From Candidatus Latescibacterota bacterium (GTDB lineage: Bacteria > Latescibacterota > UBA2968), in contig OZ244960.1 of NCBI GenBank assembly GCA_965222605.1, positions 3,296,001 to 3,360,000 of the forward strand: DNA of 64,000 nt, written 5' to 3'. The translations under genes were made by a program, and so were the position numbers. Under the pieces are notes generated by a model, which searched no databases, was not told where the DNA came from, and saw nothing but the letters and a program-made list of their open reading frames with translations. Positions within the stretch are counted from its first letter, which is position 1. Every line of letters starts with the position of its first letter. Shown one piece after another: positions 30,846 to 34,836 of this stretch.

Positions 30846-30965
30846 CCTGGACGCCTACTTAAGGCATGCAGGCGTGACGACAGGAATAGCGAATGTCATC
30901 GCGGCATGGTTAAAGCCGCGATCCAGGAGGTTTTTAGCTGGGACGGCACAGGGACCGTCCCCTAC
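30846..30965. repeat. cluster of REP-like palindromes (two GTCA-type, one GTAG-type)
   Basis: GTCATCGCGGCATGGTTAAAGCCGCGATCC is the near reverse complement of the 54168-54197 unit; GGGACGGCACAGGGACCGTCCCCTAC at 30940. Confidence 0.65.
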
Positions 30966-30987
30966 CACTGACCATCGAGACCTTTTT

Positions 30988-33714
30988 ATGCGTTCCAGAT
31001 ATTTTTTTCTTTTACTTTGTCTTTTGCCGATGCACGCACTGGCAAGTTCGCCGGCATATCAAAAGGTCACCGATGTTTCGCTTGCGGGCGCGCTTGCTCT
31101 CCAGCACTATCGCCTCGCCAATGGTCTTCAGGTTGCGATTGTCGAGGACGATACCCGACCTGTTGTGACGTGTTATATCGCCTATCGCGTGGGGTCTGTT
31201 CACGAAGCACCTGGCCGGCAGGGCATGGCACATCTGGCCGAGCACCTCGCGCTGGATCGCTCATTTTTAGAATCGCTCTATCTTTTGGGCGCGCCACATG
31301 CCAATGCCAGCACGTCGAAAGATGGCACAAAATATTATGCGACTGTTCCCAAAGCGCAATTGGATACGCTGATTGCCTATTTTGCGCGCGGTATGACACA
31401 TTTTGATGTTTCGCAGGAAGAATTCGATCTCGAAAAAGAGGTGGTTCTGGCCGAATGGGCGAAAGATGCTCGAAATCCGCGTGATCTTCTTGCTAAAAAA
31501 CTTCATGCCCGCATGTTTGCAGGGCATCCCTATCAGTACGGTGTTTTGGGTCATCGAGATACGATTGAGACTTTTACTCTGAAGCAAGCGATCGCATTTC
31601 ACAAGCGTTATTACGTGCCGAATAATGCATGTCTTGCAATTGTCGGCGATGTGAAAGGGACTGATATTTTGCCTGTTATAGTTCAAAATTTTGGAGAGAT
31701 TCCGAAGCGCGAGGGGTTTATTCACGACGATATTGATACGCTGGATGTCGCGTCTGTACCCCAGGATTCCATGCAATCTACAACTGCGCTACATTCTTCT
31801 GTTTGGGGCGTTTGGCATATTCCAATAGATACACATCCAGACTCTTATCCTTTGTATTTGTTTGACCTATCTCTTTTTGAAGGTGAATATTCTCTTGTTC
31901 GTCAAAGACTAATTGGCTCGGGAAAGGTTCTTGGAGTAAATTCCCATTTTCTCAATATGCGCTATAAAGGGCTATTTTATTTTTATGCCGATTTACCTTC
32001 GGATGCGCGTTATAAGCCTGTGGTTTCGGCCATGCGACAAATTATTCAAACGGCTGTCGATTCTTTGTCTGAGGAGAATCTTTTGCTGGCGAGAAATGAA
32101 GCGCGTAAGATTTTATATCGCACGATAACGAGTCAGACCCGTCTGGCAAATATGATCTCTTCTGGATTCATTCGCACCAATGATCCTGCCCATCGTCTCA
32201 AGTGGATGCAGACTCTCGATGAGATTACTGTGGCGGATGTCAAGCGGGTGGCGAAGCAATATCTTTTGGACCAGCCTCCCCACACCTTTGTCCTGTACAC
32301 TTCTCCGAAGCGAGTATCATCGTGGCGCGTGTGGCTTTATGTGAGCATTGTGTTGGTTCTCGTGGGCCTGGGGGGATGCTGGTATTGGCGACGGCGAGCA
32401 CTTGCAGTTGGATTATTTGCAGTCCTTTGCAATATTTCGGCAGCAGAGGCAGAGATTCCCAATCACAAGCTGTATTACGTGCAAGATGCGCGCGTGCCGC
32501 AAACACGGCTTTCAATGGTGTATTATACAGGGGGGGATCTGCGGGAGACAATGGAGACGCGCGGTTTGTCCTTTGCTTTTTTTCGCCTGAATGATTTGGC
32601 GTTACACGAGGACGATAAAAAACAGATGGATCGACTTGGCGCAGAGTTCTGGTTCAATATTTCTGACCGATATGTCACCGTTCGCTTGACGGTGTTTAGT
32701 GAAAATTTTGAGGCGGCTTTGAGACATCTGAAAGCGATGATGGAAGATCTCAAATTCTCTGAAGAACTGCTGAACAGGGAACGGACGCGGATCATAGACG
32801 ATTTTGAGGATTATATTGATGACCGTGGGGTAACAGAGATTTTTCGCTATCATTTGTACAAATACGACAGGGACCGGCGAGAGGGCACGCGCACGGCACT
32901 TGAAAATTTGACTGTGGAAGACTTGCAACAATTTTGGGATCAAACCTTGCGCGCAAGAGTCCTTTTTTTTAGAGTGACGTCCGATCTGAGTAAATCGGAA
33001 ATTGAACGCAGTTTGCGCGTGATGACGCATAACCGACCTCGAGATGGTTTTTCGCCACATCTTCGGCCAAGACGCAAAGAGATTAAGGGTATGCGCGCTT
33101 TAATTTATCTAAGTGTCCATCTGGCTAATTTTTGCTATTGGATAACCAATGGCTTGCCCCGCACACACGAGGATTGGTTTGCACAAGTGGTTTTGGTCAA
33201 TGCACTGAACCGCCTGTTGTTCATTCGGCTTCGCGACCAAAAGGGCTGGTGTTATTCGGCTGGCGTGAGTATTGACGAAAGGACGTCGCCGCCAATACTG
33301 CGTTTTTGGGCAGATCCTCGAGATATTCATACCTCTAAGCTTATTCCCGAGATGTTTCGGTTGATTCACCATTGTTTGTCTGAGCCAGATTTTTGGGCGC
33401 AGGTGGAGAAAGGTCGCGAAAGACTCAAGCGGGCGTATCATTTGCAACTCGGTCCGCAGGCCAGGCTCAGTCAGCAGGTGCGCTATGACCGCGATGGGGT
33501 GCCCGTTCTTTCGCTGGAGGAATACGAATCGGCTGTTGATCGGGTGACGAAAGAGGATATTCGCCGCGTTTTCGAAAGAATGTTAAACGGTCAGACCAAA
33601 TTGCCATTGCTGATGCTTATTTACGGGGATGCTGACAGTATTAAGGACGTGTTGAGGCACGAGGATATTAAGGCGAGGACGACGATTTTTGATATCCAAA
33701 CTCTGATTGAGTGA
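30988..33714 (+). CDS. M16 (insulinase/pitrilysin) zinc peptidase, fused two-module form
   Basis: Signal peptide, LANGL, GMAHLAEH (HxxEH), NAST, HPY, YYVPNN; second module lacks HxxEH. Confidence 0.82.
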   Translation: MRSRYFFLLLCLLPMHALASSPAYQKVTDVSLAGALALQHYRLANGLQVAIVEDDTRPVVTCYIAYRVGSVHEAPGRQGMAHLAEHLALDRSFLESLYLLGAPHANASTSKDGTKYYATVPKAQLDTLIAYFARGMTHFDVSQEEFDLEKEVVLAEWAKDARNPRDLLAKKLHARMFAGHPYQYGVLGHRDTIETFTLKQAIAFHKRYYVPNNACLAIVGDVKGTDILPVIVQNFGEIPKREGFIHDDIDTLDVASVPQDSMQSTTALHSSVWGVWHIPIDTHPDSYPLYLFDLSLFEGEYSLVRQRLIGSGKVLGVNSHFLNMRYKGLFYFYADLPSDARYKPVVSAMRQIIQTAVDSLSEENLLLARNEARKILYRTITSQTRLANMISSGFIRTNDPAHRLKWMQTLDEITVADVKRVAKQYLLDQPPHTFVLYTSPKRVSSWRVWLYVSIVLVLVGLGGCWYWRRRALAVGLFAVLCNISAAEAEIPNHKLYYVQDARVPQTRLSMVYYTGGDLRETMETRGLSFAFFRLNDLALHEDDKKQMDRLGAEFWFNISDRYVTVRLTVFSENFEAALRHLKAMMEDLKFSEELLNRERTRIIDDFEDYIDDRGVTEIFRYHLYKYDRDRREGTRTALENLTVEDLQQFWDQTLRARVLFFRVTSDLSKSEIERSLRVMTHNRPRDGFSPHLRPRRKEIKGMRALIYLSVHLANFCYWITNGLPRTHEDWFAQVVLVNALNRLLFIRLRDQKGWCYSAGVSIDERTSPPILRFWADPRDIHTSKLIPEMFRLIHHCLSEPDFWAQVEKGRERLKRAYHLQLGPQARLSQQVRYDRDGVPVLSLEEYESAVDRVTKEDIRRVFERMLNGQTKLPLLMLIYGDADSIKDVLRHEDIKARTTIFDIQTLIE

Positions 33715-33772
33715 TGAAATAATTTTCTTTTATACTCTTGACCTTATTTTTGAAGTTGGCTATGTTCTATAT

Positions 33773-33848
33773 GCCGCGGGTTGCCTCCTATCTCTATTTA
33801 TTACCTCCCTCCCGATAAATAGAGTGCTGTTGGCAGCCCGCTTTTTTA
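33773..33848 (+). ncRNA. candidate ~75-nt sRNA with CCUCCCUCCC loop
   Basis: TTGACC(33738)-N17-TATGTT(33761); 10-bp outer stem, 10-bp inner stem, U6 tail. Confidence 0.6.
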
Positions 33849-33883
33849 TTGACAGGGTTATTTTCGGAATTTATTTTGAGTTC

Positions 33884-33934
33884 GCAGTAGAAGCCTTTGA
33901 GGGTGTCGGGAGGGAGCCCTCGAAGGTTTTTTTT
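33884..33934 (+). ncRNA. candidate ~50-nt sRNA with GGGAGGGA loop
   Basis: TTGACA(33849)-N17-TATTTT(33872); ~13-bp stem with three G-U pairs on the plus strand, U8 tail. Confidence 0.5.
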
Positions 33935-34006
33935 ATGCTTCACGCGATTGTCAGCGGTTTCCGCTTGGTTGGCAGTCCAATAAGTGAGGAAATGGCGATG
34001 AAGATC

Positions 34007-34031
34007 AACTCCCCGAGTGGGAGTTTTTTTT
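34007..34031 (+). terminator. intrinsic terminator
   Basis: AACTCCC/GGGAGTT stem followed by a T-run. Confidence 0.65.
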
Positions 34032-34033
34032 AT

Positions 34034-34079
34034 AAAAATAAAAAAGAGGCGCCGGTTGGGAGGGTATAACCAACGCCTC
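34034..34079 (-). ncRNA. minus-strand hairpin/terminator with AUACCCUCCC loop
   Basis: GAGGCGUUGGUU/AACCGGCGCCUC stem (G-U only on the minus strand) followed by a U-rich tail. Confidence 0.45.
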
Positions 34080-34323
34080 AAGGGATGTTGCATGGTAACA
34101 CATTAGACGCATATACGCGGAAAAGAGTTCCAAGAAAGAGTAACGGCGTTGACTCAGCCGGGGTATAGGAGTCAACGCCGATATTTTTGCGACACGCTTT
34201 GTCGCATAGACTTTTACGCCGTAAGGGTTGGAAAAGTTCCCGAATGGCGTGATTTTTTATTCGCTCCAGCAAGTGACTGTGTACTTTTATCTCAGAGTAT
34301 TCCGCTATATATTGTTGGGTTAG

Positions 34324-34836
34324 GTGATGGACTGGCAGACGGCAGGTACTTTGCCCTGGCATATTGTGTTGCTGATTGGTGGGGGATTTGCGCTGGCAAG
34401 CGGGTTTAAGGAGTCGGGGTTGTCGCTCTGGTGCGCCCAGCAGTTGGAGAGTCTGGGTAGCGTACATCCTCTATTTTTGGTCGGTGGTTTGTGTGTGATG
34501 ATGACCTTTTTGACTGAGTTGACTTCCAATACGGCGACAGCAGAGATGTTTCTTCCGGTTTTGGCGGCGTTATCTGTGGCTGTGGGTATCAATCCATTGT
34601 TGCTGATGATTCCCGCCACGTTATCGTGCTCTTGTGCGTTTATGTTGCCGGTAGCTACCCCACCCAATGCGATTGTGTTTGGCACGGATAGAATTTCTAT
34701 GCGCGATATGGCGCGTGTGGGCGTGGTGTTGAATGTGGTTGGGGCGGTGATGATTACTGCTGCGATTGCTGTTGTTGGTCGCGTTGTGCTGGGTATTGAA
34801 GTTGGGGTGATGCCCGATTGGGCGAAGATAGAGTAG
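34324..34836 (+). pseudogene. 5'-truncated SLC13/DASS Na+:anion symporter (C-terminal third only)
   Basis: Begins mid-protein at DW...LPWHIVLLIGGGFALA; TELTSNTAT, AFMLPVATPPNAIVFG; upstream DNA is non-coding hairpins. Confidence 0.7.

Follow-up and report, generated by a model that had tools for sequence, protein, structure and literature searches.

In the Firmicutes, the C-rich single-stranded regions of the small RNAs (sRNAs) RoxS and FsrA (RsaE) have been proposed to bind G-rich ribosome-binding sites (RBS) without needing Hfq, and these sRNAs are countered by RosA, a stand-alone sRNA of ~229 nt that is made from a sigma-A-type promoter, ends at a Rho-independent terminator and sets its G-rich single-stranded regions against the C-rich sRNAs; RsaI is a further known G-rich sponge of C-rich sRNAs (PMC8216469). 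Other sponges act on sets of siblings, CrfA on SisA-D in Caulobacter and QrrX on the Qrr sRNAs in Vibrio (PMC12559287), and in the Alphaproteobacteria the Cuckoo/CcsR RNAs (RSs0680) bear two to four adjacent hairpins per transcript, each with CCUCCUCCC, RSs0680a being bound by Hfq (PMC4615179); our comparisons draw on excerpts of these three papers. Here we describe two adjacent putative sRNA genes with complementary loops, one C-rich (unit 1) and one G-rich (unit 2), in the genome of a Candidatus Latescibacterota bacterium (GCA_965222605.1, contig OZ244960.1). The window, that is the whole stretch of DNA analysed, comprises 64,000 nt (positions 3,296,001 to 3,360,000 of the contig), and the host genome, labelled G000, is closed, 6.34 Mb long and 98.7% complete. 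Both units sit on the plus strand at 33738-33936 of the window, in the intergenic region 3' of an M16 peptidase gene. A first-pass annotation of the same letters had noticed two back-to-back units, each made of a promoter, a hairpin and a U-tail, and both are indeed present:

TTGACC 33738-33743 and TATGTT 33761-33766, plus strand: unit 1 promoter, 17-nt spacing, consensus score 9/12
33771-33848, plus strand: unit 1 RNA, ~78 nt, with its 5' end inferred from the -10
33776-33841, plus strand: two-tier hairpin of unit 1, with outer stem 33776-33785/33832-33841, inner stem 33792-33802/33814-33824 and a U-tail at 33842-33847
33803-33813, plus strand: unit 1 apical loop, ACCUCCCUCCC, 11 nt
TTGACA 33849-33854 and TATTTT 33872-33877, plus strand: unit 2 promoter, 17-nt spacing, consensus score 10/12
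33884-33936, plus strand: unit 2 RNA, ~50 nt here and ~58 nt in most relatives, with a short 5' tail
33889-33931, plus strand: predicted unit 2 hairpin, with eight U at 33927-33934
33906-33916, plus strand: G-rich loop sequence of unit 2, UCGGGAGGGAG, exact reverse complement of 33805-33815

The -35 hexamer of unit 2 begins one base past the U-tail of unit 1, in keeping with the annotation, which had placed it right after the tail. Both promoters are among the three promoter-like sites listed by a consensus scan (1.1 +/- 0.9 in shuffles). The unit 1 fold has a minimum free energy (MFE) of -32.1 kcal/mol (z -7.46) and the unit 2 fold one of -24.8 kcal/mol (z -4.26), with 0/200 shuffles as good in either case, and both hairpins remain when the whole 167 nt are folded together. 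The reverse complements fold less well (-25.7 and -12.4 kcal/mol), which together with frequent conserved G-U pairs, C-A on the other strand, places both hairpins on the plus strand, as had been proposed. The 211-bp region was found in 23 of 41 related genomes, the host's own included, and in all 20 genomes of the same genus (g1) at 72-89% identity; the presence of both units in 20/20 same-genus genomes is far beyond chance. Script and tool alignments agree that both units keep their -35 and -10 hexamers, that the loops are invariant and that the stems vary. For unit 1, TTGAC-N17-TA..TT and even the spacer (TTGAAGTTGG) are conserved throughout g1, and the -35/-10 geometry is also kept in the genera g5, g8 and g9; in g7 (L023) we found a -10, TATAAT, and no properly spaced -35. 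The unit 2 promoter, TTGACA-N16/17-TAT..., is conserved in g1, g5, g7 and g9 as well as in the unlinked copies of g6, so that promoter and U-tailed hairpin are conserved together in five genera.

Within the stems, RNAalifold predicted 21 pairs for unit 1, six of them with changes on both sides, and 16 for unit 2, seven of them with such changes. In a wider alignment of the C-rich family (28 sequences from seven genera plus two sibling copies), both partners have changed in 16 of 18 pairs, and 94.6% of the cells are paired, compared with 79.4 +/- 1.0% after shuffling (0/500) and no more than 47.8% with slid partners. The corresponding test of unit 2 gave 7/14 pairs changing on both sides and 96.1% of cells paired, compared with 90.6 +/- 0.7% after shuffling (0/500) and no more than 69.7% with slid partners. 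The loops behave differently from the stems. Unit 1 orthologues share the block UCCCUCCCG (33806-33814), in which UCCCUCCC is found in 24/24 and the G in 23/24; the CCCUCCC motif of the apical loop is invariant across the whole C-rich family, and in the loop CUCCCUCCCGA nine of the 11 nt have a predicted unpaired probability of at least 0.99. The conserved loop block of unit 2, CGGGAGGGA (33907-33915), has eight of nine columns invariant in 23/23 sequences and one G in 22/23. The first-pass annotation had assigned unit 1 two exposed C-rich loops. Its apical loop is anti-Shine-Dalgarno (anti-SD)-like as claimed, but half of the CCUCCU described as an internal loop (33785-33790) is paired in the MFE structure, and the motif is not conserved in relatives, which read CCTCAGCA, CTGCGGTA and the like; it is therefore probably not functional.

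The conserved promoters and terminators and the compensatory stem changes indicate two separate structured RNA genes, and on this comparative evidence both units are very probably genuine sRNA genes of a new family of no described kind. No Rfam family reached its gathering score anywhere in the window, and a search of 33600-34400 at E values up to 10 gave noise only and nothing relevant; the best such match, P31 (E 0.3, 20.4 bits against a cut-off of 40), lies on the wrong strand and was rejected. With separate conserved promoters and no Rfam family, the locus does not look like one long transcript of a known family, the outcome that the annotation had named as fatal to its proposal. Two open reading frames (ORFs) overlap the units, at 33707-34069 (plus strand, 120 aa) and 33794-34093 (minus strand, 99 aa); we discarded a coding reading of both, as they have no Pfam match and are broken by indels and rearrangements in relatives.

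The distribution of the two RNAs was followed by pattern scans and covariance models. A scan of species genomes returned 25 stretches, 20 of them titled as metagenome-assembled genomes (MAGs) of Candidatus Latescibacterota or uncultured Latescibacteria; one further stretch, titled only 'bacterium', has both units, and four others (Clostridiales, Bacteroidales, Bacteroidetes and Caenarcanales) lack the hairpin context and were dismissed as chance matches. Scanning metagenomes for tandems gave six stretches, of which only L226 and L229 hold real modules, the other four being two chance sequences that were each seen twice. The tandem order, in which the unit 1 U-tail is followed by TTGACA, is kept in g1 (20/20), g5, g9 (two genomes) and one g7 genome. 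Two g1 genomes (L011 and L014) have different DNA upstream and retain the promoter and both units. The tandem module of the annotation thus holds for four genera but is not obligatory, as the units are unlinked in g6. In that genus, the homologue of unit 2 is preceded by a TTGACA-17-TATTTT promoter of its own, with no C-rich hairpin upstream in the eight loci examined, and a C-rich-loop RNA with a TTGACT promoter and the loop ..CCCUCCCGGC.. lies elsewhere in 15/15 genomes, several of which hold a second C-rich copy ~5 kb away. Most g6 copies of the C-rich RNA have no U-tail after the outer stem. As a separate observation, the g6 genomes L115, L128 and L131-L135 carry a second sibling type with a CCCCCC loop (..CCGUCCCCCCGGC..), which lies ~5 kb away from the CCCUCCC type. 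The closed g7 genome G026 likewise has unit 2 and a C-rich sibling at separate places; a pattern scan of it gave 88 matches, the first 30 of them folding without a clear answer, and the family model (R3, below) then located the copy. In G134 (g8, a draft), unit 1 is present and unit 2 was not detected.

Unit 1 has siblings. With its covariance model (R1), another copy comes to light in the host genome (G000:C1:6250047-6250121; L050:1501-1575) at 41.9 bits, with the loop CCCCUCCC; it is followed by a U-tail, TTGACA-type promoters and a FAD_binding_5/CO_deh_flav_C gene, an arrangement that recurs upstream of such a gene in g4 (L084) and g5 (L192). R1 gives two to three matches in each of the 19 other g1 genomes of the sample, which we read as unit 1 plus sibling, and unit 2 is a single-copy RNA. 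Among 151 sampled genomes of the phylum, with the sequences used to build the models included, a family model of the C-rich RNA (R3) matched 46 (24/29 in family f1, 18/19 in f2 and 3/64 in f3, the last being partial matches of only ~30 bits) and the unit 2 model (R2) matched 49 (f1 26/29, f2 17/19, f3 3/64, f10 2/13). The only strong R2 match outside f1 and f2 (G143) is without GGGAGGG, and the R1 and R3 matches there are partial (~30-40 nt); all of these look like ordinary terminators. Judged by these models, both RNA types appear confined to the families f1 and f2 of one order.

The feature that joins the two units is the match between their loops. As first annotated, 33805-33815 is the exact reverse complement of 33906-33916; this 11-nt perfect inverted repeat is one of only five inverted pairs that reach 10 nt within 701 nt, and by our arithmetic ~0.004 such pairs would be expected in 197 nt. 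If one G-U is allowed, the predicted intermolecular helix reaches 13 bp in this window. The conserved blocks themselves, UCCCUCCCG in unit 1 and CGGGAGGGA in unit 2, are exact complements with identical boundaries, and cognate loops are predicted to form 8-14 contiguous bp in all 34 genomes examined. At the flank (+2/-2), 12 distinct cognate pairs have A-U, eight have G-C (all in g6) and two have A.C (g5 and g7); cognate flank pairing was 4.36 against 3.85 +/- 0.16 in a shuffle test that ignores relatedness, and was reached in 12/20000 shuffles. The predicted duplex of unit 1 with unit 2 ranges from -22.4 (11-mer) to -24.8 kcal/mol (13-mer), with a net interaction of about -14.3 kcal/mol after opening costs. 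By sequence and predicted energy, then, unit 2 offers a single-stranded region complementary to the sRNA seed, as a sponge should. The two strands of the 6.3-Mb genome together hold CGGGAGGGAG eight times; two occurrences belong to this locus and the remaining six all lie outside structured intergenic RNAs, so that the best partner in the genome is found within the locus itself.

Set against the described systems, the pair would work most like RoxS/FsrA with RosA (and RsaI), SisA-D with CrfA and the Qrr sRNAs with QrrX, by analogy and with homology to none of them. It resembles RosA in that one sponge would serve more than one C-rich sRNA, with a predicted promoter and terminator of its own and without Hfq, but RosA and RoxS have three G-rich or C-rich regions where each RNA here has a single interaction loop, and unit 2 has ~50-58 nt against ~229 nt (PMC8216469). 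Unlike RoxS and RosA, the two genes are directly adjacent in four genera, in a distant uncultured phylum, and are known from sequence alone; the absence of any Rfam match and the single C-rich loop per RNA also keep unit 1 out of the RsaE/RoxS family. With CrfA and QrrX the pair would share the principle of one independently transcribed RNA that is proposed to mask the seed of a whole sRNA family; those systems, however, depend on Hfq, which this genome lacks, and the seeds are unrelated. The excerpt of PMC12559287 contains no report of a CrfA or QrrX gene adjoining the gene of a sibling. The Cuckoo/CcsR RNAs, which the first-pass annotation had invoked, share an anti-SD-like C-rich loop motif, variable stems under an invariant loop and several paralogues per genome (PMC4615179). 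Membership fails all the same: each transcript here has one C-rich loop, its invariant motif is CCCUCCC(G) and not CCUCCUCCC, the second hairpin is G-rich with its own promoter, and Rfam gave no match. The annotation had also not recognised such a module as described; to call it undescribed overstates the case, given the stand-alone sponges of C-rich or sibling sRNAs already known (RosA and RsaI, PMC8216469; CrfA and QrrX, PMC12559287). Our full-text searches on kissing or loop-loop interactions and on tandem sponges showed no such adjacent pair, a search result that does not prove its absence from print.

A regulator/anti-regulator pair is a plausible but unproven reading of these sequence data. 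We tentatively favour, with a probability of about 0.45, a scheme in which C-rich sRNAs pair with G-rich RBS and unit 2 sequesters them. Unit 1 would be one of two to three sibling sRNAs per genome that display a fully exposed CCCUCCC(G) apical loop and most likely work without Hfq, pairing with GGGAGGG-type Shine-Dalgarno (SD) regions and so blocking ribosome binding on a subset of mRNAs. Unit 2, little more than a terminator hairpin displaying CGGGAGGGA, would engage the C-rich loops through its own loop, over 11-13 bp in the case of unit 1 here, and serve as a decoy or sponge; by sequestering the siblings, and perhaps making them less stable, it would relieve repression. As unit 1 is one of several siblings, unit 2 would be a family-wide antagonist, and since each RNA has its own sigma70-type promoter, the ratio of regulator to anti-regulator could be set at transcription. 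More speculatively, because the -35 of unit 2 abuts the unit 1 terminator, heavy transcription of unit 1 could occlude the unit 2 promoter in the tandem copies. A bolder version strikes us as doubtful: a protein-free RNA toggle, in which sibling anti-SD-like sRNAs and a mirror anti-sRNA meet through kissing loops, their genes are joined with the terminator of the regulator overlapping the -35 of the anti-regulator, sequestration and promoter occlusion make their expression mutually exclusive, translation of a GGGAGGG-SD regulon is set by the outcome, and a third convergent RNA (34030-34069, see below) joins in.

The protein partners looked for were absent. A search of the closed genome for CsrA (PF02599) found none, with control genomes scoring, and Hfq (PF17209) was likewise not found in it, with controls scoring in five genomes; the absence of both is in line with the Hfq-independent pairing through GC-rich loops that is known for C-rich sRNAs. 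As to targets, GGGAGGG occurs 500 times in the host genome, ~41 of these at plausible start sites by a crude ORF rule. The CGGGAGGGA sites of the genome are mostly within long ORFs, and the intergenic ones that we inspected showed no obvious structure or gene start. At G000:C1:4258323-4259127 (L193, L195), three tandem homologous small genes encode proteins of ~72-120 aa that have a predicted hydrophobic stretch at the N terminus and match nothing in Pfam or NCBIfam. Two of the three, the first and the second, have a GGGAGGG SD, a motif that recurs at homologues in other genera; for the 73-aa gene (4258708-4258929) it is present at 31 of 64 homologue starts across the order, a count made with a start choice that favoured the motif and with no control set. 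These genes are a candidate target and, in the toggle version, a candidate member of the regulon.

Of 19 listed expression runs, 13 are on record as RNA, and all 13 hold small shares of an 801-nt stretch around the locus (0.05-0.18 of the sampled words). Four runs (X1, X2, X3 and X6) gave six contig pieces with a depth of 3-4.5; such contigs from RNA libraries show neither transcript ends nor strand. In X2 (33660-33855) and X6 (33660-33879), pieces of ~200 nt at a depth of ~3 run from the end of the upstream gene through unit 1, with DNA carry-over possible. The X1 and X3 contigs cover the upstream gene only, and no piece from the libraries lies over unit 2 or beyond 33879. As an observation on the organism, X1, a metatranscriptome labelled sponge metagenome, holds a 221-nt contig identical to the end of the M16 gene (33500-33684), and since it is without any difference a very close relative must have been present in that library.

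A number of results weigh against the sponge reading or leave room for others. The RNA-library coverage of unit 1 is contiguous with the upstream gene and could be DNA. The mRNA targets are candidates only, the tandem 73-aa genes being a lead. The genera g2 and g3 have diverged, unit-2-like hairpins with G-rich loops and no detected C-rich sRNA. The loop cores never vary and thus show no covariation. The first-pass annotation had named loop-loop covariation in homologues as a check, and what exists of it, the A-U to G-C change at the flank, is essentially one event (g6 against the rest), with relatedness inflating the shuffle test; g5 and g7 show the A.C mismatch there, g5 has in addition an uncompensated core mismatch (GGGAGAG), and L019 (g1) is left with only 8 contiguous bp. 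When loops were crossed between genera, g1 unit 1 with g6 unit 2 fitted more poorly (9.8 against 12.4 bp), but the reverse cross was as good as the cognate pair (11.1 against 11.1 bp) because G-U pairs are tolerated. Between unit 2 and the sibling of unit 1 in the host genome (loop CCCCUCCCA), only 7 bp can form. Finally, the 3' tail of 16S rRNA (..GGAUCACCUCCUUUCU) is predicted to pair with the unit 2 loop at -14.0 kcal/mol before opening costs; any SD-like loop complements any anti-SD-like loop, and SD mimicry could explain the match.

That last point leads to a different account, somewhat unlikely in our view but with a real chance of being right, in which both RNAs are genuine sRNAs without mutual regulation: the siblings, unit 1 included, would bind G-rich RBS, unit 2 would be an independent SD mimic for the 16S tail or for C-rich mRNA sites, and the complementarity of the loops would be a by-product of mimicking the two sides of the SD:anti-SD helix. 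The GGAGG within the unit 2 loop and its predicted 16S pairing speak for this, as do the promoter of its own, the separation from the C-rich sRNA in g6 (15/15) and G026, the hairpins of g2 and g3 and the lack of covariation in the loop cores. Yet the invariant 9-nt CGGGAGGGA shares exact boundaries with the unit 1 block and exceeds the length required of an SD mimic; the preferred partner of the 16S tail would be AAGGAGGUG, unlike the unit 2 block, and the predicted duplex with unit 1 (-22 to -25 kcal/mol) is far better than that with the tail (-14). The flank change from A-U to G-C, moreover, occurs jointly in both loops, and the tandem is kept in four genera. A decoy function for proteins, with unit 2 binding a GGA- or G-rich-binding protein and unit 1 a C-rich-binding one while RNA-RNA pairing is irrelevant, seems improbable to us. 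Loops invariant over two families are typical of protein-recognition motifs, and GGA within a hairpin loop resembles CsrA-type sites; like CsrB, RsmY and RsmZ, unit 2 is a small non-coding RNA with a GGA-containing hairpin loop and a terminator. Those RNAs, however, have multiple GGA hairpins where unit 2 has one, Rfam gave no match to them, the missing CsrA gene argues against a sponge for a CsrA-type protein, and two unrelated proteins would leave the exact mirror symmetry of the invariant blocks unexplained.

We consider it just as improbable that the polarity is reversed, with unit 2 as the effector, which might for example shield or activate C-rich sites or occupy ribosomes, and with the C-rich siblings as its antagonists. 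The complementarity data apply equally to such an arrangement, unit 2 is single-copy with the stronger promoter match (10/12 against 9/12), and several C-rich siblings per genome could titrate it. In the known systems, though, as far as the excerpts describe them, RNAs with C-rich loops are the mRNA-binding regulators (PMC4615179, PMC8216469), and the GGGAGGG at the plausible RBS of ~41 genes in our crude count supplies obvious partners for C-rich loops, whereas no comparable class of C-rich mRNA sites was found, no search for one having been made. It is very improbable that the hairpins are terminators or attenuators and not sRNA genes, the unit 1 hairpin ending the M16 mRNA, unit 2 ending read-through and the loop match being fortuitous. 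Unit 1 does begin only ~60 nt beyond the M16 stop, and contigs X2 and X6 do run from that gene through it. But consensus promoters precede both hairpins in five genera, L011 and L014 keep the promoter and both units despite their different upstream DNA, plain terminators do not combine invariant loops with covarying stems, and most C-rich RNAs of g6 are without any U-tail.

If sequestration of C-rich sRNAs by unit 2 is the correct reading, these would be the first regulatory RNAs described for the uncultured Latescibacterota, as far as the literature searched shows: full-text searches found nothing on small RNAs in this phylum, the two matches being irrelevant. Circuits in which a G-rich sponge pairs with a C-rich sRNA, worked out so far in Firmicutes, would then extend to a distant lineage without Hfq or CsrA, which would suggest convergent evolution of the sRNA/sponge circuit. 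The adjacency of the two genes would make a compact regulator/anti-regulator cassette of ~200 bp without protein parts, possibly useful in synthetic biology, and the two covariance models can serve as markers for annotating MAGs of the order.

Two further features border the pair:

30874-33714: M16 peptidase gene, 946 aa, Pfam Peptidase_M16 and M16_C
34036-34069, minus strand: candidate third hairpin, GAGGCG..CGCCUC, with loop AUACCCUCCCAA and a U-tail formed by the plus-strand A-run at 34030-34035, converging on unit 2

The third hairpin lies directly 3' of unit 2 in most g1 genomes and is more stable on the minus strand in 18 of 19 copies; its loop reads UCCCUCCCGA, like that of unit 1, in five of the 19 (L005, L010, L012, L014 and L015). 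Neither inspection by eye nor the promoter scan found a 5' end or a promoter for it, and 34030-34069 on the minus strand may mark where another C-rich-loop RNA ends. The sequence that separates unit 2 from this hairpin, ~100 nt at 33935-34033, resembles the residue of a deletion: its initial ~25 nt correspond to what lies upstream of a gene that other g1 genomes have inserted here, and its final ~60 nt to the 3' end of a small ORF of L018, L020 and L021 together with the terminator of that ORF (34007-34025 followed by a U-run). Beyond the hairpin, 34070-34270 is a highly conserved non-coding block of ~200 nt, without an Rfam match, that lies upstream of a symporter gene in relatives; it holds a hairpin with 20-nt arms (34136-34155 / 34169-34188), the minus-strand loop of which is CUAUACCCCGGCU and which is followed by a U-run in some relatives. 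Downstream of the block, at 34324-34836 (plus strand), all that is present of a Na_sulph_symp/CitMHS-type transporter is its C-terminal 170 aa, which match profile positions 310-469 of 472; since the full-length transporter gene of relatives begins ~60 nt past the conserved block, this genome carries a deletion.

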